Source: Rhodospirillaceae bacterium
GTDB taxonomy: Bacteria; Pseudomonadota; Alphaproteobacteria; Rhodospirillales; Rhodospirillaceae
Direction: 5' to 3'
Length of the DNA: 64,000 nucleotides
NCBI GenBank assembly: GCA_040221475.1
Contig: JAVKEJ010000053.1
Span: 648,918-712,917, forward strand
A program made the position numbers and the translations under genes. Below, piece by piece: positions 8,855 to 23,895 of the stretch; position 1 is the stretch's first letter, and the number at the start of each line of letters is the position of its first letter. The notes beneath the pieces were generated by a model that was not told the origin of the DNA, did no database searches, and saw only the letters and a program-made list of their open reading frames with translations.

Positions 8855-9706
8855 ATGAAAAGAAGAACATTGCTCAAGTCTATGGTAGCCCCATTTATTA
8901 TAGGGGCTTCTGCAACTATACTTCATTCACGCCTTTCCGCAGCTGCGACACCCCCCCTTCTCGACCCGAACAATCCTGATGATCTCTATGTCATTCATCG
9001 CAAGTTGAACTATCGGTTCGATACCGGTTTAGTGTTTTGGTATATACAAGCTGTTCGTAATGGTTTGGTCGACAGCGCGTTCACACCATTTTGGAATATG
9101 GACGTCGGTTTTATTGCAGCTGTACGCGACTTAGATGACACGCGATACGAAGTCAAAACCATGAGTGCTATTTTTTATACAGATCTCGAAACCGGCAAAC
9201 TCATCGATAGTTTCGATAATCCCTATACCGGTCAAAAGATTCCCGTTCGCCAACCAACTCTTAGCGTTTCAGCCCGAGCGCACAACAAAACAGGACTCGA
9301 AGCGCGCCCCCCGCGCCCTGGTGTGGAGATGAAAGAATATGGTGATATCGGACCGGCTTGGGTGATTGGCGATGATGTCTGGTGTCAGGCAGACACCGGC
9401 TTTCGTATCGAGGCAAATGATGAGCGTCCGCAACCGACACAAGTGAACGACTGGTTCACCTACCATGGTTCGATCTCTGAGGTGTCAAATCCTAACGTCC
9501 AAAGTGCACAGGCAACTCAAAACTTCAATGACATCAATACTTGGCCCGCCTGGCTCAACATGGGAGATCACCCAGGCAACTACGTTTCTCGTGGTTTTGG
9601 CCGAAAAGTCGCAAGCATGTCAGCAATGCCAGAATCATGGCAAAAGCTTATGAAGAAACACTACCCAAAAGAGTTCGCTGATCCTCAATCAATAATTGAT
9701 GGATAA
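8855..9706 (+). CDS. DUF1838-family protein with twin-arginine (Tat) leader
   Basis: The internal start MKRRTLLKSMVAPFIIGASATIL...SAAA fits an RR signal (the track ORF starts at 8804). The body aligns by eye with the two other DUF1838-like ORFs in this window. Confidence 0.65.
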   Translation: MKRRTLLKSMVAPFIIGASATILHSRLSAAATPPLLDPNNPDDLYVIHRKLNYRFDTGLVFWYIQAVRNGLVDSAFTPFWNMDVGFIAAVRDLDDTRYEVKTMSAIFYTDLETGKLIDSFDNPYTGQKIPVRQPTLSVSARAHNKTGLEARPPRPGVEMKEYGDIGPAWVIGDDVWCQADTGFRIEANDERPQPTQVNDWFTYHGSISEVSNPNVQSAQATQNFNDINTWPAWLNMGDHPGNYVSRGFGRKVASMSAMPESWQKLMKKHYPKEFADPQSIIDG

Positions 9707-9847
9707 TACAACGTTCACTATATAAATTAGAAAAGTGGATTAATCTTGGGCCAAAGGTTGATTGTGGCCTTAATTAATAATCCATTACATAATTCCGGTT
9801 AGTGTGGTTAAACGTCTTAGATTCTTGCGATTGGCCAATAGAAGCAA

Positions 9848-10675
9848 ATGCCCTCTAACTCTATGCTGAAATCTAACTCGTTCGCATCGAGTTCTAAAAT
9901 CTTGCTGGTTGAACCGGACAAGACCAACCGGTCATTGCTCGCCAGTTTGATTGAGGAATTGCGGCCAGAGCGTTTTATGATCGCAAAATCATTGGCTGAA
10001 GCCCGTTCGGCCATGTCTGACCGTGTGGAACAATTTGATTGTGTGATTTTGGGTGTTAAAAACCCACCCACCAGCGGCTTTCATTTTCTGCAAGATATTA
10101 GAATTGGTGGTGTGCCCCGCACGCCAAGAAACACCCGTGTGATTCTCGTCTCCCCACCTCCCAATCGGGCCATGTTAGCTCTCGCCAAAGCTTTGGACCT
10201 GGATGGTTTCATCGCTATTCCTGTAACTGTTGCCAGCGTAAACAACACGCTGTCGGCAGCTCTAAAACGGCAACGGGAAGCTCAAGAGCCGGGCGTTTAT
10301 GCCGATGTCAAATTGCCGCAACCGGTCAAGAAAAAACTGCCTGTTGAACAAAAGCACGCAACGCCAAATGCAAAAGTTGTGTGGAGTGCAAAAGAGAAAG
10401 AGAAAGCGGAACTGATCCGCTCTTTAAAAGACGGGGTCGCCGCAGACGCCTCTGCCCCGCCAGTACAGCAAGCGCAAATCGACAATATTCGATCCTTTTG
10501 GCTCAAGGACCTACTGCCAGGTATGGTGCTGGCGGAAGAGATACAGGGAGAGAATAAAGAACTTCTCCTCGCAACTGGAACTGTTCTAAACGACTCTCTC
10601 ATTGAAAAGATCAAGAAATTTAGTGAACTAGGTATCTGCCGCTCGTTCTTAAAGGCTGGGTCAGCGCCTGAATAG
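9848..10675 (+). CDS. Pseudo-receiver (REC-like) domain protein with uncharacterised C-terminal module
   Basis: The CheY-like pattern KILLVEPD...FDCVILGVKNPPTSG...VILVS...GFIAIPV has the phospho-acceptor Asp replaced by Gly and the conserved Lys replaced by Ile. The C-terminal LLPGMVLAEEI..G..LLATGTVL module resembles segments seen in front of signalling outputs (from memory). Confidence 0.6.
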   Translation: MPSNSMLKSNSFASSSKILLVEPDKTNRSLLASLIEELRPERFMIAKSLAEARSAMSDRVEQFDCVILGVKNPPTSGFHFLQDIRIGGVPRTPRNTRVILVSPPPNRAMLALAKALDLDGFIAIPVTVASVNNTLSAALKRQREAQEPGVYADVKLPQPVKKKLPVEQKHATPNAKVVWSAKEKEKAELIRSLKDGVAADASAPPVQQAQIDNIRSFWLKDLLPGMVLAEEIQGENKELLLATGTVLNDSLIEKIKKFSELGICRSFLKAGSAPE

Positions 10676-10690
10676 TTTTAGGAGCATTGC

Positions 10691-11929
10691 TTAAAATCGT
10701 GAAGTCTTTTTCATACCAATGACCGTCACAATAATCGCAATTTGGAACACACCTGCTATCAAGAAGACTTGAGCTGCTTGGCCTACATCCAACAACCAGC
10801 CAAATACAAATGGCGCGATAACACCGCCAACATTAAGCCCTGTGGACACGAACCCAAAGACGGTTCCCATCGCATCCTTTGGGGTCACCGAACGCACCAG
10901 TAAATCCCTCGACGGAGCGGTTACGCCTGAAGCCAAGCCGGCGATGCACATCGCAAAAATGATCATGACAATCGTCATATCTAAGAGACCCATAGATAGA
11001 ATCGCTATGCCAGCCGCGATCGTTCCCCAGATCGCGATTAAATCATGACGGGAGGTTTTATCGCTTAGAATTCCGCCAATCAGAATACCGGCGCTGCTTG
11101 CGGCCAGAAACGCCGTAAGGGCTAGATTCGCAGTTGCCAAAGGCATTTCATACATTTGGTCAAATGCTGAAACAGAGAAATAGGACACGCCGACATGGGC
11201 CACCGAGATGAAAAGCCAAAAGACAAAGCCCATCAGGATCGGAAGTGATAGCAACAGGATCGCCGTGCTTTTCAGAGACGGAATTGTTTTCACAGAGGGT
11301 GTGCCGTTTTCATGTTCTACAATTTCCTCGGCAAGCAAAGCCCCATTCATCTGTAATACGCCAGCCACCAGAAGCCCCGCGACGCCGACATAAATCACGG
11401 CGGCGTTCCATCCTAACGATGCAGCCAAAGCCACCATAGTCAGTGGCGCTAACGCGCTGCCCCCAAACCCCGATAACGTATGCATGCTAAAGGCCCGCCC
11501 CATCATATGGGGCGCAACAGCGCGGTTAAGGATAGCGTAGTCTGCTGGATGATAAACTGCATTCGCCAGGCCAGCTGGAACCATCATGGCAAGCAAAACC
11601 CAATACGATGGCACCAGCCCCATCACGATCAAGGCTAGACCTTGCAGGGCGACGGCTCCGGTCAACAGCTTTGGCGCATCAAGCCGGTCAACCAGCATCC
11701 CCATTGGCAACTGGGTTGCGGCACTGACAAGGTTAAAAACCACAATCAGAACGCCCAATTCGGTATACGTCACCGATAAGTCATCGCGAAGAAGCGGAAA
11801 CAAAGGCGGCAGCACAAAAAAGAAAAAATGGCTGTAAAGATGCGCAAAACTCACCAATCCGGTCACCTTGACACTTTTTGTCGTTGGTGGCCCCGCGTGA
11901 TGAGGCAAGCTGGCCCCAGTTTCTGTCAT
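10691..11929 (-). CDS. MFS transporter
   Basis: 412 aa, about 12 hydrophobic segments, typical MFS loop motifs. Confidence 0.8.
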   Translation of the reverse strand: MTETGASLPHHAGPPTTKSVKVTGLVSFAHLYSHFFFFVLPPLFPLLRDDLSVTYTELGVLIVVFNLVSAATQLPMGMLVDRLDAPKLLTGAVALQGLALIVMGLVPSYWVLLAMMVPAGLANAVYHPADYAILNRAVAPHMMGRAFSMHTLSGFGGSALAPLTMVALAASLGWNAAVIYVGVAGLLVAGVLQMNGALLAEEIVEHENGTPSVKTIPSLKSTAILLLSLPILMGFVFWLFISVAHVGVSYFSVSAFDQMYEMPLATANLALTAFLAASSAGILIGGILSDKTSRHDLIAIWGTIAAGIAILSMGLLDMTIVMIIFAMCIAGLASGVTAPSRDLLVRSVTPKDAMGTVFGFVSTGLNVGGVIAPFVFGWLLDVGQAAQVFLIAGVFQIAIIVTVIGMKKTSRF

Positions 11930-11946
11930 AACGATGCCGTCATCAT

Positions 11947-13203
11947 CTAGTTATCAGCCAGTGCTTGTCTTACGTCCGTAATGGGTGTGCCGAGAAACAA
12001 CACAAGTGCTGTCACCGTCACTGTGGCCCCAAAGGCAAAGGGAAGCCAAGGTATAAATTGATACAGCGCCGCCCCGGTTGCTGGCGCGAATAGAAAGGCT
12101 ATGGCTTGACTAGAGGTCGATATACCCGCCAGTCGTCCTTGTGCCTCCGGGCCAGCTGCTAAAGATAGCGATGTATTAATTGCTGGCATAGAAAACCCCT
12201 GTCCTAATCCATTACAGATCATCGCAAACACAAACATGGTTTGAGTTGTTCCAAACCAAACCAGCCCGATCGAGATAAGCGTAATACTCACGCCCATGAC
12301 AATGTAGGTTTTAGCGCTCTGATTCAGCCGCCGTATAAGAAATGCCTGCACGAATACGTTTGAAGCCGCAGCGCACATCAACCCCAACCCCATGGCCTGT
12401 GCCGCCGCAATGGGTTCAAGACTAAATCTGTCCTGAACAAAAAAACCAATGACAGAGAATGTACCGTAGGTTCCGCACATAAAACACACAGAACTGATTG
12501 CAATTCGCAGAATAGGCCCCTTAAGAAGATGGCGGTATTTCACGGCTACGTTGGCAGCACTGGACCGTGTTTTCGGTAAAAAAATGCGGGATGACATCAC
12601 TGCAATGCACCCTGCTCCCCCAATGATATAGAACGGTGCCGACAAACCGAAACCAGTAAAAAAGGCTGATACAGACGGACCGATAATTGCGCCGGTGCTG
12701 GTGGCTGCCGTTAACATTGATATCGCACGGAGCCGATGTTCCCGGGACGACATATCTGCCGCCAATGCCATGGCAGACGGCGTCACGGCCCCCGCTCCCA
12801 AGGCAAATAAAGCTCTGGACCCAACAAGCAACCACAACATCATTATACCGGTAATGAGTCCGCTAATCGCGGCATCCACAATCAGACCAAACATGACCAC
12901 GGAGACCACGAATACGATCCCGCCTATGACAATAACGCGCCGCCTGCCCCAGCTTTCACTCAAAGCCCCCCACATCGGTCCAGTAAACAGCATAAAAAAA
13001 CCATGAACCGACATCACCAAACCAATTTGATAGTCAGCCATACCAACTTGACGCCCGATGGGTGGCAGTATCGTGAACAAAAAAGCCTGGCCCACGATCA
13101 TGATCATCACCGCGTAAAATAAAGTCACGCTGACTTTTAAGGGCAACACGCCGTCTGTGGGGAAATTGGGTGGCGGACTTGGGATCGGAGACGTCACGGG
13201 CAA
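11947..13203 (-). CDS. MFS transporter
   Basis: 418 aa, multi-pass. GPMWGALSESWGRRRVI matches the MFS loop 2-3 motif (G-x3-D/S-R/K-x-G-R-R). Confidence 0.8.
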   Translation of the reverse strand: MPVTSPIPSPPPNFPTDGVLPLKVSVTLFYAVMIMIVGQAFLFTILPPIGRQVGMADYQIGLVMSVHGFFMLFTGPMWGALSESWGRRRVIVIGGIVFVVSVVMFGLIVDAAISGLITGIMMLWLLVGSRALFALGAGAVTPSAMALAADMSSREHRLRAISMLTAATSTGAIIGPSVSAFFTGFGLSAPFYIIGGAGCIAVMSSRIFLPKTRSSAANVAVKYRHLLKGPILRIAISSVCFMCGTYGTFSVIGFFVQDRFSLEPIAAAQAMGLGLMCAAASNVFVQAFLIRRLNQSAKTYIVMGVSITLISIGLVWFGTTQTMFVFAMICNGLGQGFSMPAINTSLSLAAGPEAQGRLAGISTSSQAIAFLFAPATGAALYQFIPWLPFAFGATVTVTALVLFLGTPITDVRQALADN

Positions 13204-13395
13204 CCTAGCTATCGCTTAATAGAAACTGATTTGACCGCTTAACCGATCAAATCACAAGAGTGGTGAGTGATCGGAAGTCATCTCACTCAAATATTACGCT
13301 TAGAGTTATACAAAACCCTCCATCATCTGCTGACGCTTACAAGAAAATAGGTATAGTGGCTATCAGAAAGAGAAGTGATAGCTGGAGATAGATTG

Positions 13396-14199
13396 ATGAC
13401 CCGACCTCGCCGCGGATATACAGATGGACCCTTTGGTCAGATTCACTATCAAGATACAGGAGGAGATGGCGAACCTTTAATCCTTTGTCATCAAGCGCCA
13501 ATTACATCCCGTCAATATGACACCGTCTATCCGCTGCTCGCGGCGAAGGGCCTACGTGCCGTTGGTATTGATACACCAGGCTTCGGACTGTCAGATGAAC
13601 CAGATCATGTTCCAACTATTGAAGAATACGCCACAGCAATTCCTGCTGTAATGGATGCCTTGAATATTCCAAAGGCGAATATCGCTGGCCATCACACCGG
13701 GGCAATGATCGCCACTGAAGTCGCGTTGCAATTTCCTGACCGTATCAAAAATCTAATACTCAATGGCCCCTCGCCCTTCACGCCAGAGGAAGTTGCACAA
13801 TGGAATGCCTTTGTCGACGAGCATGAAAAAGGCTTCGTCCATAAAGAAGATGGCTCACATTTGCAGGAACTCTTTGCACGTCGGTGGCAGTGGGCATTAC
13901 CAGGAACGGATCCCGCTTTGGTCACTCGTTATGTGGTTGAGCAACTACAAGGCTATGGTCCTTTCTGGTACGGCCATAATGCAGCTTTCGCTTACGACCA
14001 TAATGTCACGCTACTGAAAATTACGCATCGAACATTAATTCTGATTAACACAGGCGATCTTGTCTACGAACACGCAAAAAAAGCACACACCATGAGACCG
14101 GATTTTGAATTTAAAGAGATTGAAGGTGGTACGATCGACATTACGGATCAAAAGCCAGAAGAATGGGTAGAAGCAGTCGTCTCCTTCATAACGGGTTAA
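13396..14199 (+). CDS. Alpha/beta-fold protein lacking canonical nucleophile and catalytic His (pseudo-hydrolase?)
   Basis: Alpha/beta hydrolase layout (LILCHQAP oxyanion region, nucleophile elbow NIAGHHTGAMIA). Start chosen at ATG 13396 behind GGAG (the track start GTG 13375 sits inside a hairpin). Confidence 0.65.
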   Translation: MTRPRRGYTDGPFGQIHYQDTGGDGEPLILCHQAPITSRQYDTVYPLLAAKGLRAVGIDTPGFGLSDEPDHVPTIEEYATAIPAVMDALNIPKANIAGHHTGAMIATEVALQFPDRIKNLILNGPSPFTPEEVAQWNAFVDEHEKGFVHKEDGSHLQELFARRWQWALPGTDPALVTRYVVEQLQGYGPFWYGHNAAFAYDHNVTLLKITHRTLILINTGDLVYEHAKKAHTMRPDFEFKEIEGGTIDITDQKPEEWVEAVVSFITG

Positions 14200-14358
14200 T
14201 TTATGTGACAGAGCTTTAAGTGATCAACCGGCTCGATCAAGACAAATCGTTTTTAGACGAAATTGAATCGCTTTAGAATTACTTACTCGGATCTATCTTG
14301 ATCTGCTAACGCTCTATCGGCCAATATGCGCTGATCAATCAGATCAGATATTTTCATA

Positions 14359-15234
14359 ATGCAACAAAACTCCAGAACAACTGATGTCGCCGATGAGCAA
14401 AATGCTCATATGGCCGGTTCATCCGCTGATGCGCCTGTCTCTGACTCCGAGACAAACCCGTTTTCAGAAGAACTTGATGCCGATGAAATCACTGAGGCAT
14501 ACCGCGCTCAACATTCACCTGAGTCAAATGATGTGGTCTCTGACTCATCTCATACTAAAAATGAGCCCTTGGCTGAAGACCACTCCCCAACTGAGTATGA
14601 ATATTCAATTGAGCAAGATCTTGATGAACACGAGTGCCTGCTTGAAGAGAGCGGTGATACGATTCCGGTTTCTATTACAAACAAACGAGTTTTATTGATT
14701 GAAGATGATGATGATACCACTGAAATCCTGAAACAGAATCTCCAAACGCTCGGTATTACCAAAGTGAATGTCGCAACCAATGCTGAGGGCGCACTGAATT
14801 TGCTCGCAACAGATAAAGAAATGTTTCCAGACGTTGTAGTCCTTGAATTGGCCCTTGTCGGCATGGATGGCATACAGTTTCTGGCTCAACTTCGTGCGCA
14901 CAAGAGCAAGAGACTCCAAAACCTGCCGGCGGTGGTCATTACAATGCTGGATAGCCCCAGCATTTTTCGACGGGCGGCGCGTCAGAAAGTCGGTGCCTTT
15001 CTGCGTAAACCTGTGTCTACAGAAGGGTTAAAAAAAGGGATTGAAGCCGCCTTGCGTGGCGACGTCGTTGAGCAACCCTTTAGTCAGCCCAAGTCATGGT
15101 TAGATGACGTTGATGAAGAAGAACTCAAAGAAAAACGTAACTCGATCAAAGCCAAAGCCGCAGCGAAAGCTCAAAAGAAGGGATTTTGGGTTTGGCTTTT
15201 AAACATACTTGTTCCATGGTCAGGGCGTATTTAA
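14359..15234 (+). CDS. Receiver-domain protein with Glu at the phospho-acceptor position, acidic disordered N-terminus
   Basis: REC pattern VLLIEDDDD...DVVVLELALVGMDG...VVITM...FLRKPV (Asp to Glu). The N-terminal ~105 aa are very acidic and low complexity. Lys-rich tail with a short hydrophobic end. Confidence 0.65.
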   Translation: MQQNSRTTDVADEQNAHMAGSSADAPVSDSETNPFSEELDADEITEAYRAQHSPESNDVVSDSSHTKNEPLAEDHSPTEYEYSIEQDLDEHECLLEESGDTIPVSITNKRVLLIEDDDDTTEILKQNLQTLGITKVNVATNAEGALNLLATDKEMFPDVVVLELALVGMDGIQFLAQLRAHKSKRLQNLPAVVITMLDSPSIFRRAARQKVGAFLRKPVSTEGLKKGIEAALRGDVVEQPFSQPKSWLDDVDEEELKEKRNSIKAKAAAKAQKKGFWVWLLNILVPWSGRI

Positions 15235-15254: not shown

Positions 15255-15965
15255 ATGAAGAATTTAAGTCACATTTTCCTCGTTACCATTTGCAGTATCC
15301 TGCTCGGTATTTCCACTCTGGCACAAGCTCAAGACAAACCTGGCTTTCTATTTGTCAACGCCACAGTTACCGACTTTGAAAAGCTCGGCGTTTATGGCCG
15401 TGCTCTCCCCCCCGTTTATGCAAAATACGATGGTATTTATAGAATCTTTGGTGGCATCGGTCGTGGCGTTGAGGTTCTGGCTGGCTCCGCCATGCATGAG
15501 TCTGTGATATTCGCAGAATTCAAAAGTTTGAAAGACGTCGAAACGTTCTGGTGGTCGGACGAATATCGGGCCGTCTTTCCATTACGCGAAGGCGCAGGCA
15601 TCTTTGATGTGGTGGGCCTCGCAGGCACCGGAGAACAACCTTATTCCGCCGAAAGCGGCATTCAACCAGCTTATATGTTTACCTTGGTAACCGTTAAAAA
15701 CCCTGAGAAAACCCAAGCTTATATGGAAGCAACCTCAGACTTTACTGCAAATGCTCCAGGACGTTTAATCGCTCTCGCACGCCCTGCTGATATGTCTATT
15801 CTGGAAGGGCCGAAGCCTGAGCATACGATTGAGATCACTTCATGGCCAAGCGTGCAGGCGATTAAATCTTATCTATCTGATCCAGAATTCACAAAAGTGA
15901 ACGCCCTGCGTGAAGAAGCTATGGACTTTACAGTCATGGTCGCCGAAGTGCCAAAACCAAGATAG
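15255..15965 (+). CDS. Secreted protein with two tandem DUF1330 (Dabb-fold) domains
   Basis: Sec-type leader MKNLSHIFLVTICSILLGISTLAQA. Two repeats carry the DUF1330-like pattern (..VIFAEFKSLKDVETFWWSDEYRAV.. and ..IEITSWPSVQAIKSYLSDPEFTKV..). Confidence 0.6.
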   Translation: MKNLSHIFLVTICSILLGISTLAQAQDKPGFLFVNATVTDFEKLGVYGRALPPVYAKYDGIYRIFGGIGRGVEVLAGSAMHESVIFAEFKSLKDVETFWWSDEYRAVFPLREGAGIFDVVGLAGTGEQPYSAESGIQPAYMFTLVTVKNPEKTQAYMEATSDFTANAPGRLIALARPADMSILEGPKPEHTIEITSWPSVQAIKSYLSDPEFTKVNALREEAMDFTVMVAEVPKPR

Positions 15966-17202: not shown

Positions 17203-18402
17203 CTAGGTTTTCTTAACGCCCATCAAATTATAACGACTACGCCAGGCAGGCGGTCCTTCGCGTGTGACCTCGAAACCCGCATCAGCCATAACTTTGGGGA
17301 AATCAAAGCGGGCATACTCTTCACGCCAAACTTCCTCATTCCAGCGATGATCTTTCCACTGCGAGTAACGAATGTAAGCTGTGTTGGCAGAAGACGCTGA
17401 ACCAGTCAGAAAATCAATGGGAAAGAAAACGCCACCGGGTCTTAAAATACGGTGGACTTCGGTCGTGACTAATTTTGATATTTGTTCCGGCAACTCATGA
17501 TGAAGAATGTAAGATGCCACAATGTCAAAATGATTATCAGGGAATTTTGAATCCTCTGCCATGCGTTGTGCAAAATTTACATCAATGCCTAACTCTGCGG
17601 CGCGCATGTGTCCGTAGCGGACCATAGGCCCGCCGGCATCAATGCCCCACACCTCAGCACTTGGAAAACGCTCTTTGAGTGCGACCGCCAACTGCCCAAT
17701 ACCACATCCAATATCAAGGATGCGCATTACTTTACCGTCTGGGGGTTCCGGCACTTGGCTGCCTAACCGGGTATGCAATTCATCCTGATAATTTGTCAGC
17801 TTACGGCCGTTATAGAAATTATTCGTGCTGTAGTGATAAATATGGCCCGCAAACGGATTGCCGACATAGCCACCGGGCTGCGTGTGAATTTCATAGCGGG
17901 CGTACTCTGGGATTTCCATGTCCGGGTTCAATTCCAAGGTCCCTGGACCCTGCCCATCAAAGGCTTCCATTTCTGCCAAGTAGACTTCAGCATTACTCTT
18001 AAACTCAGTATCAAAGTTGCGATGCATAACATCATGCACACCAGTTCTATAGCGAGCCTCCATGCCTAAAATATGATCGCCTTCAATGGCGGCAAAGATA
18101 TCTTCCATTGGTGTATCAGGAGACTCCGGATCAATTCCGGCCTTAACCATCAAGTCATCGAAGCGCTTTCTTGCGGCGGGTAGAGCGCGATCACTCCCCC
18201 AGGTTCTATAGCCCGTGAGAAAGTCATCTCGGCTCTCGACATCTAAATTCGCGAGACGCTCCAGTCGGCCGCGCGTGCCTCGAGGTTCGTTATCGAAGTC
18301 AAAAGAGCCTGATGCGGCGGATGCTGATCGACCTTTCAGCATTGAGGACGCAATACCCCCTAACCCAGCAAGAGCAGAAAACACAGTGCGACGGTTAGTC
18401 AT
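17203..18402 (-). CDS. Class I SAM-dependent methyltransferase-like protein with twin-arginine leader
   Basis: MTNRRTVFSALAGLGGIASSMLKGRSASAA leader. Motif I ILDIGCGIGQ, WGIDAGG, FDIVASYILHHE, LRPGGVFF. Confidence 0.75.
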   Translation of the reverse strand: MTNRRTVFSALAGLGGIASSMLKGRSASAASGSFDFDNEPRGTRGRLERLANLDVESRDDFLTGYRTWGSDRALPAARKRFDDLMVKAGIDPESPDTPMEDIFAAIEGDHILGMEARYRTGVHDVMHRNFDTEFKSNAEVYLAEMEAFDGQGPGTLELNPDMEIPEYARYEIHTQPGGYVGNPFAGHIYHYSTNNFYNGRKLTNYQDELHTRLGSQVPEPPDGKVMRILDIGCGIGQLAVALKERFPSAEVWGIDAGGPMVRYGHMRAAELGIDVNFAQRMAEDSKFPDNHFDIVASYILHHELPEQISKLVTTEVHRILRPGGVFFPIDFLTGSASSANTAYIRYSQWKDHRWNEEVWREEYARFDFPKVMADAGFEVTREGPPAWRSRYNLMGVKKT

Positions 18403-18416
18403 ATTTTATCTCCGGT

Positions 18417-19622
18417 TTATGCTGGCTTGGTGCCATAAATATTGCGGTTGCTATACCACGCGGGCGAGCCCTCTTTATTAACGTCAAATCCTGCGCGCTC
18501 CATATCACCTGCGAAGTCCATATCTTTATATTCTATGCGCCAAACTTCATTGTTCCAACGATGGTCTTTCCATTCTTGATACTGTGAGTAAGCCCCAGGC
18601 ACGCCCCGTCGACCACCAGTGTAGAAATCAATGGGGAAATAAATCCCACCGGGTCTCAGAATCCTATTAGCTTCCTTGAAAATCGCACGTGACACGTCCG
18701 CAGGCACTTCATGGTGAACAATGTAACTCGCTACAATATCAAAGTGCCCTTCAGGGAACTTAGTATCTTCTGCCAGACGTTGAGCGAAGTTAACGGCAAC
18801 ACCCTGATCAACAGCACGCATATGTCCATAGCGCAACATCGGGCCACCAACATCAACACCCCAGACCTCAGCATTCGGGAAGCGCTCAGCCAGAGCCACG
18901 GCGAACTGCCCTAAGCCACAACCGATATCCAGGATACGCTTCACGTCTTTACCGTCTTCGGGAACGGGCAGTTGCTCAGCCAAGCGCGCATGATGCTGGT
19001 CTTGATAATTGTCCGTCGCACGCGCCGAATAAAATGCGTTTGTGCCATAATGATACAAGTGGCCAGCGAACGGATTTCCGACATACCCACCAGGCTGCAT
19101 GTGTATTTCGTGCTTGGCATAAGTTGGAATATCCAGACCAGGATTTAGCTCTAAAGAACCCGGTCCAATCTTGTCGTAATCTGCCATCTCATCCAGATAG
19201 GTGTCCGCATCATCGGCAAAGGCGTTATAGAAATTCTTATGCGCGAAGCGCTGGCTATAAACCCGCATTAACCCTTCAGTGCCAACCACATGATCATCCG
19301 CTATGATCTCGTGAATTTTCTCCATCGGCAGTTCTTCGCTGGGATCATGACCACTGGCAGCAAGAACTTTCTCAAACCGTTCTTTTGCAGCACGTTGTAC
19401 CGTCGAACCCCGCCAATTTCGAAACCCTGTGAGAAAGTCATCACGCCCTTCAGCATCCAAAGTCGGAAGGCGCTCTAAACGACCCAGAGCTCCACGTTTT
19501 TCAACATCTGGCAAGGTTACAGGTGTTGACGTATTAGCAGCCGCTTTCCGGCCCGTTAGCGCAGTGCTAATGGCTGTCGTCAAGCCAGCGGCGGCACCAA
19601 ACAAAGTGCGGCGTTCCAACAT
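18417..19622 (-). CDS. Class I SAM-dependent methyltransferase-like protein with twin-arginine leader
   Basis: MLERRTLFGAAAGLTTAISTALTGRKAAA leader. Motif I ILDIGCGLGQ, WGVDVGG, FDIVASYIVHHE, LRPGGIYF. Close paralog of 17203..18402. Confidence 0.75.
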   Translation of the reverse strand: MLERRTLFGAAAGLTTAISTALTGRKAAANTSTPVTLPDVEKRGALGRLERLPTLDAEGRDDFLTGFRNWRGSTVQRAAKERFEKVLAASGHDPSEELPMEKIHEIIADDHVVGTEGLMRVYSQRFAHKNFYNAFADDADTYLDEMADYDKIGPGSLELNPGLDIPTYAKHEIHMQPGGYVGNPFAGHLYHYGTNAFYSARATDNYQDQHHARLAEQLPVPEDGKDVKRILDIGCGLGQFAVALAERFPNAEVWGVDVGGPMLRYGHMRAVDQGVAVNFAQRLAEDTKFPEGHFDIVASYIVHHEVPADVSRAIFKEANRILRPGGIYFPIDFYTGGRRGVPGAYSQYQEWKDHRWNNEVWRIEYKDMDFAGDMERAGFDVNKEGSPAWYSNRNIYGTKPA

Positions 19623-19802
19623 AAGAAATCTCCCTATTCACGTTTTTCCTAGTATAGCGCCATTTATAGACTTGCGCGACCAATCTGGATGGACAAACGT
19701 ACATTGTGTGAACACGCGAATAATCAACACCTCTATTCACGGCCTCAAACAAGAAAAACTGATAAGTTTCAGATAGTTGGTTGATAACCAAAGAGACCAC
19801 AT

Positions 19803-20603
19803 ATGATACTTTTGCCCACCCCAAAATTGATCGAGACAGAGAATCCCGCTCACCTGGATTTTCTTCACCGCAAAATCCTGTACGCGCTAGATGATCGCCC
19901 GGTCTATTGGTGGAAACGGGGCACAAAATATGGCGTGGTCAATGGCGAAGCCAAGGCTATGTGGAATATGTGGGTGTTTTTTGTTCAGCGCGTTCTTGAG
20001 CACCGTTCAGATCGTTTTGATGTGACTTCACTCGAAGCCGTCTACCTTACCGATCCTGACACCGGTGACGTATTGGAAAACTGGTACAATTTCTACACGG
20101 ATCAAAGACTGCCCGTTCCAGGTCAACTCATGGGGCCAGAAACACAAACTTTTCTGAGTGATGGCAGCAGCATTGCATCCAGCCCCCTGCCCGGCCTCGA
20201 CATTAAACGTAAACATACTCTCGGCCCCGCGACTATTGTTGGTGATGATCTTTGGTTTTCATTTGACTCATCTGCCATCGTCACACGGTCACGAGACGGA
20301 GAAGAAAAGCGATTCCGGATCAATGACCTGGAAACCTTTAATGCTAAGGTCAGCGATGTTCTTGACCCAGATGTATTAAGCGCGCCGGCCAGTGCAACGC
20401 TCCATCTTATCTCAAGCTGGCAAGGCTGGCTCGGCATGGAGGGTTATCCAGGTAGTCAGGTGACACGATTGGTGGCGCGCAAGGCATTTCAATTTGATAA
20501 CATTCCGGATGAACTGCAGCAGATCATGCACCGCTATCACCCTGAAATAGCTTCTGACCCTGTCTCATCCTTAGATCGCAGCCCAGAAAGCTTTGAAGAC
20601 TAG
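19803..20603 (+). CDS. DUF1838-family protein, leaderless paralog
   Basis: 266 aa with no signal. Shares blocks with the other two copies (e.g. ..DP.TG.....F.NPYT/NFYTDQ..PV.., GDD.W.., W.GW..M.G.PG). Confidence 0.6.
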   Translation: MILLPTPKLIETENPAHLDFLHRKILYALDDRPVYWWKRGTKYGVVNGEAKAMWNMWVFFVQRVLEHRSDRFDVTSLEAVYLTDPDTGDVLENWYNFYTDQRLPVPGQLMGPETQTFLSDGSSIASSPLPGLDIKRKHTLGPATIVGDDLWFSFDSSAIVTRSRDGEEKRFRINDLETFNAKVSDVLDPDVLSAPASATLHLISSWQGWLGMEGYPGSQVTRLVARKAFQFDNIPDELQQIMHRYHPEIASDPVSSLDRSPESFED

Positions 20604-21562
20604 TCTTCGATATCTCGTGCGACACGGAAGCCAAAGCCGGTTCCAGTTGTCGTGGCTAGAATACGCAGGCGCGTCGCCGGTCTCAGCAATCCAGGAAAGC
20701 CCGCCCAAGAACCGCCTTTCGCAACCCAAGCGCGGCAACTGCGCTTTGAAAAGGGTTTACCATCGCGGGGAATATCTTGATGCGTTTCTTCATAACAGTC
20801 AGCGGTCCATTCAGAGACATTGCCTGCCAAGTCATAGAAACCAAATGGATTTGGCGCGAAGCTTGCTGTCGGTGATGTGAAGACATAGCCATCATCGCAG
20901 TCTGCATATTGACCATATGGAATATCTGGAACATTAGGAACAAAGCTCAAATCAGCACCATTCTGATAGCTGCAAGCATTCGTCCATTCCTCACCCCAAA
21001 AAGTGGCCTGGGTTGCCGATGTTTGTCCGGCACGCGCGGCGTACTCATACTCAGCCTCGCTGGGAAGACGATACGACTGTCCCGTCTTCTTAGACAGCCA
21101 GTTGATATAAGCGAGAATGGCAGCACGGCGCACACAAGCAACAGGATGATCATCAGTCACCTCGAAGCCTGGATCCTGCCAATTTAACTTTGGTTGCACC
21201 GACCAACCTGAACTCGTCAGATGAAAACATCCAGGCTTAATTTTATAACCAGTGTCTTCAATAAACTCTGCAAACTGACCATAGGTTACTTCCATTTGCC
21301 CTAAGGCGAATGACGATGCAAAAACCACCTCAATCCGTGGACCTTCGTTCGCAGACATCCGATCAAGCATTTGCCATCGTCGGCCTTCTTCTTGATCGGC
21401 CCCGATGGTCACACTTCCCGGCGGCACCTCAATCATCACTGGGCATGTTTCACAGTCTTTGAAGGTGTTTCTTTCAGCCGCGACAATGGGCACGCCACCC
21501 ATAACGAAGAAAAGCAAACAAACACCTAGAATTGAACGAAAAACGATTTTCAAAACTACCAT
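20600..21562 (-). CDS. FGE-sulfatase (SUMF1/EgtB/PvdO) family protein with N-terminal signal/anchor
   Basis: Family blocks ..MEVTYGQFAEFIEDTGY.., HPVACV, YRLPSEAEYEYAARAG, NPFGFYDLAGNVSEWT, KGGSW, GFRVARD. Start taken at ATG 21562 (MVVLKIVFRSILGVCLLFF...), which overlaps the stop of the upstream SDR ORF (ATGGTAG). Confidence 0.8.
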   Translation of the reverse strand: MVVLKIVFRSILGVCLLFFVMGGVPIVAAERNTFKDCETCPVMIEVPPGSVTIGADQEEGRRWQMLDRMSANEGPRIEVVFASSFALGQMEVTYGQFAEFIEDTGYKIKPGCFHLTSSGWSVQPKLNWQDPGFEVTDDHPVACVRRAAILAYINWLSKKTGQSYRLPSEAEYEYAARAGQTSATQATFWGEEWTNACSYQNGADLSFVPNVPDIPYGQYADCDDGYVFTSPTASFAPNPFGFYDLAGNVSEWTADCYEETHQDIPRDGKPFSKRSCRAWVAKGGSWAGFPGLLRPATRLRILATTTGTGFGFRVARDIED

Positions 21563-22095
21563 GACTGAAGACGCCCTTTCCAATCGAGGAAAACGCTACT
21601 CTGCTCCGGGGTCAATTCGTCAATAACCGTGACCATGCCATCAACACTCTCCGATGGAGACCTAAAGTCCGGAACATCAAATTCTTCTAGTTTCTCAACT
21701 TTTACGCCTCCGGGGTGAAGGCTTGCGACAATTATACCGTCTGGTGCAGTTGCGCGGGCGACTGTAATCATCGCCATGTTCAAGGCGGCGTTGCTGATCA
21801 AATTATCAATGGCTGTCCCGTGGTACTTATCGGCGACTTCCTGAATCATATCCAAATCACGAACGTCAATACGTTCCACCGTTACGGTATTTGGGTAGCT
21901 TTGTTGCAAGTTTGCTAGAGTTTCTGGTGTCGTCGTCCGACGGTGTGTCGCAATCACAATAGCGCCCCTCGCCGCATATTGTTTTGCAAACTCAAGACCG
22001 ATCCCACTGTTTGCGCCAGCAATGAGGACCGTTTCCGCAGATGCCGTTGACGCTAGAAGCATAAGAAAGGCACCGCCCAAATGTAATAATTTCAA
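21556..22095 (-). CDS. Short-chain dehydrogenase/reductase remnant with signal peptide; catalytic Ser-Tyr-Lys region missing
   Basis: Leader MKLLHLGGAFLMLLASTASA runs directly into the dinucleotide loop IAGANSGIGLEF. NNAG-like ISNAA then continues straight into ALNMAMI...LHPGGVKVE. No YxxxK anywhere. 179 aa, versus the ~230-250 aa I recall as typical. Confidence 0.6.
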   Translation of the reverse strand: MKLLHLGGAFLMLLASTASAETVLIAGANSGIGLEFAKQYAARGAIVIATHRRTTTPETLANLQQSYPNTVTVERIDVRDLDMIQEVADKYHGTAIDNLISNAALNMAMITVARATAPDGIIVASLHPGGVKVEKLEEFDVPDFRSPSESVDGMVTVIDELTPEQSSVFLDWKGRLQSW

Positions 22096-22207
22096 TGACG
22101 TGCTCCCAGCAGCTTTTAGAAATGCACGCGTTATTAAGCGTAACCATCTCTGCGATAAGAGTGTGAATATTCACCTTAGAAAGCTCACATTATGAACATT
22201 GACGGTC

Positions 22208-23086
22208 TTAGTTTTCGGTCTTAACCGGCTTCTGAACCGAGTCGATATAACTCGGTCCCTGATCAAACTCTGGAGAAACATCGAATACATCACTCAAGGT
22301 CCGGGCCCGCTCAATATAAGCATCATCTAAGTCATCGATAGAATTCAGCTTTGTACCTTCAAAATGCCAGATCAAATAGCCATCCACATCGGCCATATCG
22401 AGCCACCGGCTAAACTTACCTGTATACCAACCCGATGATGTCGCGCGCGCACTCTTATGAGCCTCGCTGAGAGCTTCTTCTGCTGGCGCGAAGTAAGTGT
22501 GAACTTCATAAATTGGTTTGGGTGCCACAGGCGCAAAGTTTTCCGTCAGGAACAGCCGAATGGTCTCGTTGTCCAAGCGCCAATCCAGTGAAACCGGTTT
22601 TTCCTCGTACATCTCTGGAAAACGCTGGCGCGAGATTGGGAAGTAACTACCCATAGGCGTAAAAACCTCGCCATCTTGCCGCCGCTGCATTGTAGACACC
22701 AATGGCGTTGCCCGGCCGGTGATGGGGTTAATGAACATGTCGATAAACTCACCCGTCACCGGATCAACAAAATAATTCAATGCCGATGGAAAACGCCGAT
22801 ACACACCCTCACCTTCGTTGCGCCACCACGATCTTTGAGCACCACGTGTTTGCAACAGGGGAACAACGCCGTCTTCGGTTAACGCAAACAACCTGCTTGA
22901 AGATTGCCAAACACTCTCACCATCATCCGTACGGCCCAAAATACGCACTTTAGCTTTAACTTGATTCTCCGGTGACTCTGGAAGCACCGAGACTGTTGCA
23001 GAAGCAGATTGAGACCAAATGGGGACGGCACTGGCCCCGAGCCCCAACGCGCCAATGAGTGTCGTCGCATCTCGTCGCGAAACCAT
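22208..23086 (-). CDS. DUF1838-family protein with twin-arginine leader
   Basis: MVSRRDATTLIGALGLGASAVPIWSQSASA leader. The body is collinear with the other DUF1838-like ORFs. It starts 2 nt after the stop of 23089..23895. Confidence 0.6.
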   Translation of the reverse strand: MVSRRDATTLIGALGLGASAVPIWSQSASATVSVLPESPENQVKAKVRILGRTDDGESVWQSSSRLFALTEDGVVPLLQTRGAQRSWWRNEGEGVYRRFPSALNYFVDPVTGEFIDMFINPITGRATPLVSTMQRRQDGEVFTPMGSYFPISRQRFPEMYEEKPVSLDWRLDNETIRLFLTENFAPVAPKPIYEVHTYFAPAEEALSEAHKSARATSSGWYTGKFSRWLDMADVDGYLIWHFEGTKLNSIDDLDDAYIERARTLSDVFDVSPEFDQGPSYIDSVQKPVKTEN

Positions 23087-23088
23087 AC

Positions 23089-23895
23089 TTATTGCCCTAT
23101 CTCAACAATATCCAAACTCACGGTTTCAAATATTGACCCTGTCACATCGCCAAACTTAAGATTCATCCTCAGCAAGGCTCGGTCTTCCTTAGTTAACAAC
23201 ACCTCCGTACCACTGAGCATCTGAAACTTGTCTGACATCAGCCTTGTGCCATCAGGTAAGGTGAACTCTTCCTCACCCAAGTATGTGTATTCAGATGTCA
23301 CGATGTTTCCAATCATCGTCTCGTGCCGCGAACCACCCATCCAATACACACCGTGTGGCTGTTCACCAGGGGCATCGAAATCGTATTTCAGGAAGTGCAA
23401 GCCATCTGCTGACGCCGGCCCCGTCGCCAACGAGTCCAAGCCGTCAAACGCCTCAACCTCTTCAACAATAATCCCCTCACCCACGCGTTCAAACATAAGA
23501 TCAGAAGCTGCGACGGACGCTGACTCTTCCCGCTTCACAACATAAGCAGAGCCAAGCACACCTTTGCGCGACCAATTGTTCATGTAAGCCTCTCGAGCAG
23601 TTCCGTCGGCATCGACCCAAATCATGGCGTGGCGTGCTTCACCGGCTCGAATGTTGTCGGAAACGACATGCATGTACCGGGATCCATCATCATGGACGTA
23701 CATCGACCAATACTCCGAGGCGCATGGCGCATTATTCTTCATCGGTTCCCGGCACTCGGTCGTGCCACGAAGAATTTTTACAATGCCAGGTTTACGATCG
23801 GCCGGTTCAATGAACGCGGGTTGAGCCGTTGCTGATGTGGCAACAAGCACTATTGCCGTCGATACTAAAATCCCTAAACCAAACTGCATCCTCAT
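23089..23895 (-). CDS. Secreted hypothetical protein
   Basis: Sec leader MRMQFGLGILVSTAIVLVATSATAQP. No recognisable family by eye. First gene of the minus-strand unit ending with the FGE-like gene. Confidence 0.55.
   Translation of the reverse strand: MRMQFGLGILVSTAIVLVATSATAQPAFIEPADRKPGIVKILRGTTECREPMKNNAPCASEYWSMYVHDDGSRYMHVVSDNIRAGEARHAMIWVDADGTAREAYMNNWSRKGVLGSAYVVKREESASVAASDLMFERVGEGIIVEEVEAFDGLDSLATGPASADGLHFLKYDFDAPGEQPHGVYWMGGSRHETMIGNIVTSEYTYLGEEEFTLPDGTRLMSDKFQMLSGTEVLLTKEDRALLRMNLKFGDVTGSIFETVSLDIVEIGQ

Follow-up and report, generated by a model that had tools for sequence, protein, structure and literature searches.

The fifteen genes between positions 8855 and 23895 of the window, the 64,000-nucleotide stretch of a Rhodospirillaceae genome analyzed here, are a clade-level locus of uncultured marine Alphaproteobacteria, and there is roughly an even chance that this conserved, clade-specific locus acts on a small organic molecule, with steps on either side of the inner membrane. 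Its core would be an operon of three class I SAM-methyltransferase-fold enzymes, MTA, MTB and MTC. MTA and MTB would fold, and presumably bind their cofactor, in the cytoplasm, and afterwards be exported by the Tat route. The most likely form for export is a heterodimer, with the MTA signal able to carry MTB along as a hitch-hiker. The pair would then act on a small molecule in the periplasm, alongside two exported DUF1838 beta-barrel proteins, a double DUF1330 protein and a PvdO-like protein of the FGE fold, a set to which relatives would add a secreted NADP-type SDR. The cytoplasmic side would consist of MTC, DUF1838b, an alpha/beta-fold protein with a G-x-H-T-G motif (ABH) and two nitrilase-superfamily amidases, and two MFS transporters would carry substrate or product across the membrane. 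The evidence, all of it computational, implies a previously undescribed periplasmic small-molecule chemistry that depends on cofactors. We know of no periplasmic source of SAM or NAD(P), and neither a SAM riboswitch nor a SAM transporter is evident.

The list of open reading frames and a Pfam scan recover all fifteen genes with the families and leaders given in the original prediction, among them two MFS_1, one Abhydrolase_1 and two Response_reg proteins. The block had been described as accessory, and this holds for one segment only: ORPH-DUF1838c-SDR-FGE is the only variable part and is decaying or missing in several genomes, so the fifteen genes need not all form one pathway. The rest is not a strain-level accessory island. 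It is co-localized in about 12 syntenic loci of related marine MAGs, at 60-95% amino-acid identity. The conserved neighborhood reaches left to two CN_hydrolase genes (6523-8624). CN_hydrolase 2 (6523-7551) is syntenic in loci L008-L010 and has formamidase and N-carbamoylputrescine amidase as its nearest NCBIfam models, both below cut-off. On the right, the MOSC and PepSY_TM genes (24080-25745) are syntenic in L006-L008, L014, L015 and L019, and their membership in the system is uncertain.

Table 1. Genes of the block and its conserved flanks, with positions in the window.
Feature	Position	Strand	Features and Pfam match
CN_hydrolase 2, nitrilase-superfamily amidase	6523-7551	-	CN_hydrolase 6e-37; flanks block, in conserved neighborhood
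CN_hydrolase 1	7581-8624	-	Paralogue of CN_hydrolase 2, 65% identical
DUF1838a	8855-9706	+	Tat-type leader MKRRTLLKS...SAAA; DUF1838 7.5e-15; AAGGA precedes ATG at 8855
RRa, pseudo-receiver	9848-10675	+	Response_reg 1e-05, below Pfam cut-off
MFS transporter 1	10691-11929	-	MFS_1 1e-40; syntenic in 10 loci
MFS transporter 2	11947-13203	-	DHA1/efflux-like type; MFS_1 6.5e-52
ABH, alpha/beta-fold protein	13396-14199	+	Leaderless; Abhydrolase_1 2e-17; nucleophile elbow G-H-H-T-G
RRb, receiver	14359-15234	+	Acidic N-terminal extension; Response_reg 3.5e-17
Double-DUF1330 protein	15255-15965	+	Sec leader; DUF1330 in two stretches (dimeric alpha/beta-barrel domains)
MTC, class I methyltransferase fold	15974-17176	-	Leaderless; distinct subfamily, 28% identical to MTB
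MTB, class I methyltransferase fold	17203-18402	-	Tat leader; residues 1-29 (nt 18402-18316) MTNRRTVFSALAGLGGIASSMLKGRSASA
MTA, class I methyltransferase fold	18417-19622	-	Tat leader; residues 1-29 (nt 19622-19536) MLERRTLFGAAAGLTTAISTALTGRKAAA
DUF1838b	19803-20603	+	Leaderless; DUF1838 6.7e-18
FGE-sulfatase-fold protein, PvdO-like	20600-21562 or 20600-21583	-	Sec leader; FGE-sulfatase 1.3e-50
SDR remnant (adh_short)	21556-22095	-	Leader, Rossmann N-terminus and C-terminus; catalytic core deleted
DUF1838c	22208-23086	-	RR leader MVSRRDATTLIGALGLGA...; DUF1838 2e-11
Orphan secreted protein (ORPH)	23089-23895	-	Sec leader; orthologues in L006, L013, L014, L019
MOSC-domain gene	24080-24655	+	Pfam MOSC; conserved right flank
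PepSY_TM gene	24624-25745	-	Pfam PepSY_TM; conserved right flank

The same families recur in 56 non-orthologous methyltransferase loci: ABH in 16, CN_hydrolase in 17, MTC in 10, DUF1838 in 8 (with RR leaders on 6 of 10 ORFs), MFS2-like genes in 7 and FGE in 2. On unrelated high-GC contigs, a Tat-DUF1838 gene occurs together with a secreted SDR, an MFS transporter and a methyltransferase (L086), or adjoins a CN_hydrolase with a Tat leader (L088). That one combination keeps recurring, in paralogous as well as unrelated loci, argues for a joint function of the genes. The set had been thought to match no described pathway, and indeed no assignment was found in Pfam, NCBIfam, the PDB or the searchable literature.

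RR leaders had been noted on two methyltransferases and two DUF1838 proteins; they are present and conserved in orthologues, and each family keeps a copy without leader (MTC and DUF1838b). Comparison of 100 leader-bearing methyltransferase-family ORFs (77 loci) gives the consensus M-[LIF]-[DN]-R-R-T-L-F-G-A, followed by a weakly hydrophobic core. In 96 of them K/R is the first charged residue beyond this core, all 100 have an AxA-like site, and this n-, h- and c-region architecture is kept down to about 45% identity. Among the top 120 database homologues, 85 have the RR. The RR-leader cores have a low maximum 10-residue Kyte-Doolittle hydrophobicity of 1.4-2.2, against 2.3-3.2 for the non-RR leaders (double DUF1330, FGE, SDR and orphan), which is the difference expected between Tat and Sec. 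The starts do not lie downstream of the RR motifs, a doubt raised earlier: Shine-Dalgarno motifs precede the upstream ATGs of MTA, MTB and DUF1838a (the motif is weak for DUF1838c, which has the RR leader), and no internal start with a credible Shine-Dalgarno motif was found. Conservation in both orthologues and paralogues makes the leaders more than chance and, judged by sequence, they are genuine, family-wide export signals and not start-codon artifacts.

It is very improbable that the RR leaders are non-functional or the starts mis-called, and that every methyltransferase here is cytoplasmic. Many family members are leaderless, including orthologues with 82% identity, and in a few the twin arginine is replaced by LR or RL, which speaks for such a reading. 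It fits poorly with the architecture of 100 sequences, whose RR is invariant and which carry an AxA site and a Sec-avoidance K/R, with the ribosome-binding motifs upstream and with Tat-typical hydrophobicity. Leader absence is also clean, in that leaderless proteins begin at the mature N-terminus, which is the expected behavior of modular signal peptides.

The operon is led by MTA, with intergenic gaps of 14 and 26 nt. The MTB leader is missing in seven orthologous loci (L007-L010, L014, L015 and L019) where MTA retains its own; the reverse was never seen among the orthologues. Where MTB is leaderless, 3-15 nt separate it from MTA; in the window the spacing is 14 nt. This repeated loss in MTB with retention in MTA suggests that the two are exported as a heterodimer, and the MTA-MTB pair moves by itself as an IS-flanked unit. 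The MTA leader is retained in every orthologue except L016/L017, where MTA and MTB are both leaderless and DUF1838a keeps its leader, so exported DUF1838 is not strictly dependent on periplasmic methyltransferases. MTC relatives are leaderless in every case, and MTC is closest to a cytoplasmic methyltransferase of Sphingomonas pJE1 (32%, full length). Within a mostly cytoplasmic family, the methyltransferases with Tat leaders form a clade that is derived and expanded, with up to 7 in a tandem array and 7-9 loci per genome in the 77 loci examined.

Tat export of methyltransferase folds had been flagged as unexpected, and for these class I SAM-methyltransferase folds, whose SAM motifs are intact, it is. 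The acidic residue that follows beta-2 and motifs I (LDIGCGxGQ), AED and FD are all invariant or nearly so in exported and leaderless members alike. By sequence and by fold, these proteins match best to the small-molecule methyltransferases CysG/BelI, NovO/CouO and RebM, and small-molecule methyltransferases are also the nearest folds to the AlphaFold model of MTB (pLDDT 80). N-terminal to the methyltransferase domain lies a distinctive, highly conserved, His/Arg-rich helical cap; it is about 170 aa long and matches nothing in the PDB.

The exported proteins could also act without turning over free SAM, either with tightly bound SAM/SAH as a prosthetic group or as ligand-binding or single-turnover proteins, which we consider unlikely. 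SAM/SAH loaded before Tat export could pass methyl groups from donors to acceptors within the periplasm, or serve chemistry other than methyl transfer. The use of Tat, the route for folded, cofactor-loaded proteins, rather than Sec is consistent with this, as are the MTA/MTB pairing, the tandem arrays and the cap without structural counterpart. However, the SAM motifs are of the kind found in ordinary turnover methyltransferases and identical in leaderless cytoplasmic relatives, no sequence feature marks tight or covalent cofactor retention, and a pure binding role is hard to reconcile with strictly conserved residues resembling a catalytic site. Some close relatives, namely MTA and MTB of L016/L017 and the cytoplasmic proteins of sphingomonads, are entirely without leaders. 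The fold is thus evidently functional in the cytoplasm as well, which argues against a purely non-catalytic role of the exported proteins.

DUF1838 had been counted as normally cytoplasmic, but the family has no known "normal" compartment. The RR leader of DUF1838a is kept in L010, L011, L014, L016, L017 and L020, and that of DUF1838c in L006, L013, L014 and L019. DUF1838b has 24 close leaderless homologues and a sister clade with SRR leaders; its AlphaFold model (pLDDT 93.6) is all-beta, with no PDB match above TM 0.32. The double-DUF1330 protein matches PDB entries 3lo3 (residues 30-112) and 2fiu (residues 140-231) and keeps its hydrophobic leader in 7 orthologues. The orphan protein has no match in Pfam or NCBIfam; leader-bearing paralogues (25-27% identity) lie downstream of MTC in L005 and L011. 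The FGE-like protein had been taken for a normally cytoplasmic type with a signal anchor. Export is in fact ordinary for it, since FGE-like proteins of the PvdO/GldK type usually reside outside the cytoplasm, and its leader looks like a cleavable Sec signal, with orthologous leaders ending in ASA|E and AKA|D; the gene is split in L006. The described fusion of a leader to the TGxxxGIG loop of the SDR is a family-wide feature, with a Sec-type leader abutting TGxxxGIG in at least 110 of the 120 nearest homologues and also present on full-length orthologues. The window copy itself, whose TTG start is preceded by GGGAG, has an 82-aa in-frame gap relative to 261-aa orthologues. This gap removes the SSLSGS and YYKTSK segments, and with them the catalytic Ser and the Y-x-x-x-K motif, leaving a catalytically dead remnant.

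The leaderless ABH has His in place of Ser in its nucleophile elbow and had been described as a pseudo-hydrolase. Gene decay is not the explanation: 48 ORFs at 31 methyltransferase loci, several with Tat or Sec leaders, form a subfamily that keeps the G-x-H-T-G elbow, and this subfamily adjoins methyltransferase homologues in Novosphingobium and Antarctobacter. Both receivers have the substituted phospho-acceptors reported for them, Gly in RRa (VILGVK, in DCVILGVKNPP where CheY has D57) and Glu in RRb (VLELAL within DVVVLELALVGMDG); RRa is present in L007, L014, L015 and L020.

MFS transporter 1 has weak likeness to PgtP/EntS-type models, and the best NCBIfam models for MFS transporter 2 are the Tet(A) family and a bacillibactin exporter, both below cut-off. 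In 7 paralogous loci, tandem Tat-methyltransferase arrays are followed by MFS2-like genes (31-35% identity). Since MFS2 resembles efflux pumps, product efflux and export of a self-made compound fit equally. We would favor uptake with catabolism or detoxification over biosynthesis.

Maturation of a self-made secreted metabolite in the periplasm, as for pyoverdine, seems doubtful. MTC, ABH and the amidases would make a precursor in the cytoplasm, an efflux-type MFS transporter would export it, and the Tat-exported methyltransferases, PvdO-like protein, SDR and DUF1330 protein would tailor it in the periplasm. In pyoverdine maturation, enzymes of cytoplasmic type, including PvdN, do act in the periplasm (PMC9305348, PMC6206403). 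PvdO is the closest model to the FGE-fold protein (1e-54), both transporters resemble siderophore or drug exporters (BcbE, EntS, Tet), PepSY_TM adjoins the block, and TonB-receptor genes adjoin it in relatives. Against this, no NRPS, PKS or NIS synthetase, the core biosynthetic enzymes, lies in or near the block, and the PvdO score is far under the family cut-off. The number of loci per genome and the tandem arrays suggest diversification of substrate range rather than a single product, and cultured relatives carry the module in catabolic-type clusters.

The putative MTA/MTB complex recalls Tat "hitch-hiker" complexes such as E. coli hydrogenase-2 HybOC and DmsAB, in which the RR leader is needed on one partner only. 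The partner genes are likewise adjacent and probably translationally coupled, and the seven loci with leaderless MTB beside leader-bearing MTA show the same asymmetry. Unlike those complexes, MTA and MTB are paralogues of one fold and both have leaders in the window. The glucose-fructose oxidoreductase of Zymomonas mobilis (GFOR) is Tat-exported with non-dissociable NADP and is a precedent for the prosthetic-group reading. GFOR and PvdN share with MTA and MTB a Rossmann-type cofactor-binding fold of cytoplasmic type, a twin-arginine leader and, presumably, cofactor loading ahead of export followed by small-molecule chemistry in the periplasm. The cofactor here would instead be SAM, which ordinary methyl transfer consumes and does not regenerate; no Tat-exported SAM methyltransferase turned up in literature searches.

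CysG/BelI, NovO/CouO and RebM match the C-terminal Rossmann methyltransferase domain (24-28% identity, Foldseek E ~4e-9, phmmer E ~1e-12). They are cytoplasmic proteins of ~215-270 aa from Streptomyces biosynthetic clusters, whereas the window proteins add the helical cap and a Tat leader. The L-H-H that follows beta-4 lines up with the HH in the His-His-Asp metal site of CysG (PMC11408123), a motif so common in this methyltransferase class that it does not establish metal dependence. The FGE protein shares the FGE-sulfatase fold and a signal peptide with GldK/PorK and with PvdO, the dihydropyoverdine dehydrogenase, which is its best NCBIfam model at full-length coverage. Its score of 185 bits, where the cut-off is 500, means that it is no PvdO orthologue, and no pyoverdine genes are near it. 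Related in gene content are uncharacterized plasmid modules of Novosphingobium, Sphingomonas and Antarctobacter, which combine a cytoplasmic methyltransferase (29-35% identity to MTB or MTC), a ~116-aa helical protein, a G-x-H-T-G alpha/beta-fold protein and a CN_hydrolase, the last adjoining the methyltransferase in Novosphingobium. The families and their adjacency are the same, but the modules are leaderless and have the small partner gene that is missing from the window. They sit in catabolic-looking clusters with hydantoinase, Rieske oxygenase and aldehyde dehydrogenase genes.

The 15 open reading frames at 8855-23895 and their Pfam assignments agree with the gene list of the original prediction. 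The block holds three DUF1838 proteins, three tandem class I methyltransferase-fold (MT) proteins of ~400 aa (MTA, MTB and MTC), one double-DUF1330 protein, one protein each of the FGE-sulfatase fold and of the adh_short family (the SDR), an orphan that falls into no family, a pair of MFS transporters (MFS1 and MFS2), one alpha/beta-fold protein and two receiver-domain proteins (RRa and RRb). MTA, MTB and MTC alike exceed the Pfam cut-offs for Methyltransf_25, _11, _12, _31 and _23. With the Pfam cut-off at 25 bits, the DUF1838 (PF08894) paralogues score 55.8, 65.8 and 44.6, and DUF1330 (PF07045) matches two stretches of its protein at 85.9 bits against 23, with PDB 3lo3 and 2fiu matching the halves. 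The FGE protein scores 172.9 bits against a Pfam cut-off of 23.3, and 185 bits against the NCBIfam PvdO model (NF051459), below the equivalog cut-off of 500; its export had been listed as unusual, and a periplasmic location is in fact ordinary for an FGE-fold protein. The alpha/beta-fold protein passes the Abhydrolase_1 profile (64 bits against 25.8), and its elbow reads G-H-H-T-G in place of the serine-nucleophile motif G-x-S-x-G. In both receiver proteins the response-regulator Asp at the end of beta-3 (CheY D57 position, compared by translation) is replaced, by Glu in RRb (VLELAL) and by Gly in RRa (VILGVK), and the receiver score of RRa falls below the Pfam cut-off.

Positions of the features discussed, in the window and in the related loci (L numbers) compared with it
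Feature	Sequence	Position	Strand	Remark
MTA	window	18417-19622	-	first in transcription order
MTB	window	17203-18402	-	second in transcription order
MTC	window	15974-17176	-	third in transcription order
SDR	window	21556-22095	-	
Methylthioadenosine phosphorylase-like ORF	window	620-1504	-	from sequence alone
Probable Fe-S subunit beside molybdopterin enzyme	window	1722-2576	-	cysteine-rich, from sequence
Pyrogallol-hydroxytransferase-like molybdopterin enzyme	window	2573-5530	-	
VanA-type Rieske O-demethylase	window	30129-31277	-	
531-aa FAD_binding_2 flavoprotein	L014	7066-8658		RR leader
SDR, full-length orthologue	L015	6046-6828		query of homologue search
~116-aa partner protein	L034	9628-9978		
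~116-aa partner protein	L077	9582-9998		
Tandem MT array	L055	7444-14855		Tat leaders
CN_hydrolase (nitrilase superfamily)	L088	8975-10021		apparent Tat leader

The block had been described as carrying export signals on normally cytoplasmic families, and these predicted signals are borne out by start codons, leader physics and family-wide conservation. MTA, MTB, DUF1838a and DUF1838c have the Tat-type motifs ERRTLFG, NRRTVFS, KRRTLLK and SRRDATT, the last being the weakest. The uncharged cores of the RR leaders are 17-30 residues long with a mean Kyte-Doolittle value of 1.1-1.5, and the maximum over 10 residues is 1.4-2.2 in RR leaders versus 2.3-3.2 in non-RR leaders, a split as expected for Tat versus Sec. 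Shine-Dalgarno sequences of the GGAG/AAGGA type stand before the upstream ATGs of MTA, MTB, DUF1838a (8855) and the orphan, and the SDR starts at a TTG with GGGAG ahead. A scan of the first 42-50 residues with NCBIfam models, including the TAT-signal model, gave no matches and was uninformative, since peptides this short are dropped by the HMMER filters; the leaders were therefore judged by rule-based measures and conservation.

Conservation is the decisive evidence, and it confirms the putative export leaders as real features of the MT family. Among the 120 top-ranking database homologues of MTB, 85 have RR near the N-terminus, and across 77 related genomic loci a looser RR-motif pattern flags 108 of the 145 ORFs of the MT family. 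Stricter extraction from the 77 loci gave 100 clean leaders, and their logo reads M-[LIF]-[DN]-R-R-T-L-F-G-A-x-A. K or R is the first charged residue past the hydrophobic core in 96 of the 100, and every one has an AxA-like site. Leaderless MT relatives start exactly at the mature N-terminus. The RR leaders of DUF1838a and DUF1838c are kept in all orthologues, and the Sec-type leaders of the double-DUF1330 protein, the FGE protein and the orphan are likewise conserved; for DUF1838b, 24 close homologues are leaderless and a sister clade bears SRR leaders.

The predicted SAM site of the MT proteins combines a D-x-G-x-G-x-G motif (motif I) with an acidic end of beta-2 and an adenine-contacting acidic residue. 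Across 36 aligned members, whether exported or leaderless, L229, D230, G232, E283 and D293 do not vary, G236 hardly does, and position 255 is D or E. The AlphaFold model of MTB (pLDDT 80) consists of a disordered leader, a helical N-terminal domain (~45-215) without a counterpart among the PDB matches, and a Rossmann methyltransferase domain. Foldseek gives a probability of 1.00 to many SAM/SAH-bound methyltransferase structures, and the closest PDB matches by sequence and fold are the small-molecule methyltransferases CysG/BelI, NovO/CouO and RebM. CysG/BelI has a His-His-Asp calcium site (PMC11408123), and an L-H-H motif after beta-4 of the MT proteins aligns with the HH of that site. The motif was dropped as proof of a CysG-like metal site and kept only as a weak lead, because it is common in this methyltransferase class.

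MTA and MTB are 56% identical, and MTC, 28% identical to MTB, belongs to a separate subfamily whose members are leaderless in every relative compared. A scan by sequence pattern, with each species represented by a single genome, placed the MT family at 515 loci, and a profile search of 1.84 billion cluster representatives returned 367 relatives at E<=1e-30. A Tat-like leader is present in only ~16 of 112 full-length proteins among the best 150 relatives, so that the Tat-bearing MTs form a derived clade of a mostly cytoplasmic family. Single marine MAGs supply 7-9 of the 77 loci returned, and tandem arrays of up to seven MT genes occur in some loci. In four loci (L055, L043, L051 and L064), 4-7 tandem Tat-leader paralogues are followed by an MFS2-like gene, and a lipoprotein-like FGE-fold gene lies ahead of the arrays in L055 and L064. 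Tat-leader members were also seen outside Alphaproteobacteria, in MAGs labelled Gammaproteobacteria (L028 and L058) and in a Povalibacter sp. MAG (L082) with two copies, each preceded by the small partner gene described below.

The leaders of MTA and MTB are lost in a one-sided way. MTB orthologues have no leader in L007-L010, L014, L015 and L019, and in those loci MTA keeps its own and lies 3-15 nt upstream; the converse, an MTA leader lost and an MTB leader kept, was not seen among the loci compared. Leader loss in MTB only is the pattern expected if MTB were exported in complex with MTA. In L016/L017 both genes are leaderless and the leader of DUF1838a is kept. On contig CBDHFR010000004.1 of one genome (L003/L004/L012) the pair, whose members share 75% and 73% identity with MTA and MTB of the window, occurs alone, with IS transposase and integrase-fragment genes on its flanks, which suggests that MTA-MTB is a self-sufficient, mobile two-gene unit.

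Co-localisation in related genomes had been put as a test, and the block is syntenic in about a dozen marine-MAG loci at 60-95% protein identity, from MAGs labelled by their submitters as Rhodospirillaceae, Alphaproteobacteria or Rhodobacterales. The conserved core runs DUF1838b / MTA-MTB-MTC / double-DUF1330 protein / (RRb) / alpha/beta-fold protein / MFS2-MFS1 / (RRa) / DUF1838a / two CN_hydrolase genes, the last of which extend the functional neighbourhood left to 6523. MOSC and PepSY_TM genes recur at the right flank. A horizontal-transfer island was ruled out, as there is no sharp GC boundary and the chromosomal housekeeping genes mfd, recG, gyrA and uvrA lie to the right; the block is a clade-level chromosomal locus and not a recent island. 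Its variable, eroding segment is orphan-DUF1838c-SDR-FGE, which is absent from L007, L009 and L010; FGE is split in L006, and remnants of the orphan and FGE are fused by a deletion in L008. Promoter and terminator counts equalled the shuffled expectation and so have no bearing on operons. L014 and 15 other loci encode an RR-leader flavoprotein of 531 aa (FAD_binding_2; leader FTKRSFLKGAATTLVLA...); in several syntenic loci its gene separates DUF1838b from MTA, and the window does not have it. The window's own genes outside the block in the table may hint at phenolic, methoxy-aromatic and SAM-salvage metabolism nearby.

The SDR had been noted for a Sec leader fused to its TGxxxGIG loop; the leader holds family-wide, and the window copy has lost its catalytic core. 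This copy has the dinucleotide motif AGANSGIG, TGANxGIG in its orthologues, and an in-frame loss of ~82 aa has removed SSLSGS and YYKTSK, and with them the catalytic Ser and Y-x-x-x-K that are kept in the L006, L011 and L015 orthologues; it reads as a remnant. Truncation occurred independently in L019, by an N-terminal deletion. In the full-length orthologues (261 aa; L006, L011 and L015) the same leader is fused directly to TGANxGIG, and in at least 110 of the 120 nearest homologues (P0309-P0428) a hydrophobic Sec-type leader ends in AxA right before T-V-L-I-T-G. These homologues span several proteobacterial lineages and are labelled in database sources merely as 'SDR family oxidoreductase'. 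The family is widespread, unnamed and worth attention in its own right, as a second large exported family with a leader abutting the NADP-binding loop. Consistent neighbours were rejected after three long contigs gave unrelated contexts, and the SDR-DUF1838 link is therefore not general. One contig (L091) carries a tandem array of at least seven SDR paralogues.

Partner families were counted among 56 MT loci non-orthologous to the window block. CN_hydrolase genes occur in 17 of the 56, the G-x-H-T-G alpha/beta-fold subfamily in 16, MTC-type methyltransferases in 10, MFS2-like transporters in 7 (after tandem arrays) and FGE-fold proteins in 2. DUF1838 is present in 8, with RR leaders on 6 of 10 ORFs. 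In L086, an unrelated high-GC contig, a Tat-DUF1838 gene adjoins genes for a methyltransferase, an MFS protein and a secreted SDR that shares 46% identity with the window's SDR. On a further unrelated high-GC contig (L088), a CN_hydrolase with an apparent Tat leader (MPERQTRRELMATTLALAAAAGLP...) lies directly downstream of a Tat-DUF1838 gene. The His at the nucleophile position is constant throughout the alpha/beta-fold subfamily, several members of which have Tat or Sec leaders. The term pseudo-hydrolase was therefore right in that Ser is absent from the elbow and wrong in implying a decayed hydrolase. DUF1838b was modelled as an all-beta fold (pLDDT 93.6) with weak matches to a haemophore, porins and LolA-like proteins; with a best PDB TM-score of only 0.32, the fold pointed to no function.

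A small protein of ~116 aa, probably helical and outside any Pfam family, occurs in 35 loci, including L034 and L077, lies directly upstream of a Tat-MT in 24 cases, and was not found in the window. In marine loci it stands upstream of leader-bearing MTs only (24/24). The idea of a Tat-specific chaperone was nevertheless rejected, since in Novosphingobium, Sphingomonas pJE1, Antarctobacter and L067 its homologues go with MTs that have no leader; the protein looks like a general partner of the MT superfamily. An apparent fusion of the small protein to a Tat-MT (P0203, 494 aa) has junk sequence at both junctions that looks like frameshift read-through, and is probably an artefact of assembly or gene calling. 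Leaderless versions of the module lie on plasmids of cultured bacteria. On Novosphingobium resinovorum pSA1, an MT gene, the small-protein gene, a gene for a fused double CN_hydrolase and one for a GVHTG alpha/beta-fold protein lie in the company of hydantoinase, Rieske oxygenase, aldehyde dehydrogenase and MFS genes, and similar sets are on Sphingomonas pJE1 and Antarctobacter pSMS3-3. The ancestral setting of the module looks cytoplasmic and catabolic.

The locus is most likely a two-compartment small-molecule processing system, a reading built on the protein families observed, the conservation of their Tat and Sec leaders, the intact SAM motifs, the operon-like gene spacing, the synteny and the return of the family set elsewhere. 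MTA and MTB would fold and bind cofactor in the cytoplasm and then be exported by Tat as a heterodimer. In the periplasm they would modify a small molecule together with the DUF1838 barrels, the double-DUF1330 protein, the PvdO-like protein and, where intact, the SDR. The MFS proteins would move substrate or product across the membrane, and MTC, DUF1838b, the His-elbow alpha/beta-fold protein and the amidases would act on the cytoplasmic side. Pyoverdine-style maturation of a product in the periplasm is a live alternative that fits the efflux-like MFS2 and the PvdO-like FGE protein. However, the paralogue expansion and the catabolic context of the cultured relatives' modules make it likelier that the locus takes up, breaks down or detoxifies a range of outside compounds than that it builds a single product.

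The Gram-negative periplasm is assumed to be free of SAM and NAD(P)H, and no route for SAM into it was evident at the locus from NCBIfam models of transporters or from an Rfam scan for a SAM riboswitch or other RNA clue (6000-26500, E<=1), in which the only match was a chance snoRNA. The alternatives are a new supply route, tightly held SAM/SAH as a carrier or non-consumed cofactor, and a single-turnover or binding role; that some close relatives are wholly cytoplasmic speaks for the MT fold being a working enzyme. It is possible, if somewhat doubtful, that marine Alphaproteobacteria and some Gammaproteobacteria hold an unrecognised periplasmic methyl-transfer chemistry, in which an expanded family of Tat-exported MT-fold heterodimers leaves the cytoplasm cofactor-bound, obtains SAM by a new route or uses bound SAM/SAH as a recyclable methyl carrier from environmental donors to acceptors, and forms, together with DUF1838 barrels, secreted NADP-type SDRs and His-elbow alpha/beta-fold proteins, a modular set of tools that acts on dissolved organic molecules.

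If the MT-fold proteins are truly exported and active, periplasmic enzymology is broader than the assumption of no SAM or NAD(P)H allows. The scale goes beyond one genome, given the cluster representatives and the many loci per MAG, and a toolkit diversified by substrate, in marine heterotrophs that are abundant and uncultured, would touch the fate of marine dissolved organic matter, methylated compounds or toxins. The comparisons made here give a testable context to DUF1838, DUF1330, the His-elbow subfamily and the small MT partner protein.

On computational evidence, the observation of the gene block and its leaders is confirmed with corrections, and the original prediction of an undescribed periplasmic system is partly supported, by the export signals and by the absence of a described pathway; a non-canonical role of the MTs is a candidate reading. 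None of the block's proteins reaches the cut-off of an NCBIfam curated family that names a pathway, and the literature searched likewise held no description of the gene set, so the failure to match a known pathway stands. It also held no Tat-exported SAM methyltransferase, the phrase "periplasmic methyltransferase" and related ones not being found, and DUF1838 appeared in two gene-cluster tables only, with no function given. Tat export of cofactor-loaded cytoplasmic-type enzymes is established, as in NADP-loaded GFOR and in the enzymes of pyoverdine maturation, and so is Tat hitch-hiking. Like those exported enzymes, MTA and MTB have a cytoplasmic-type cofactor fold with a Tat leader.
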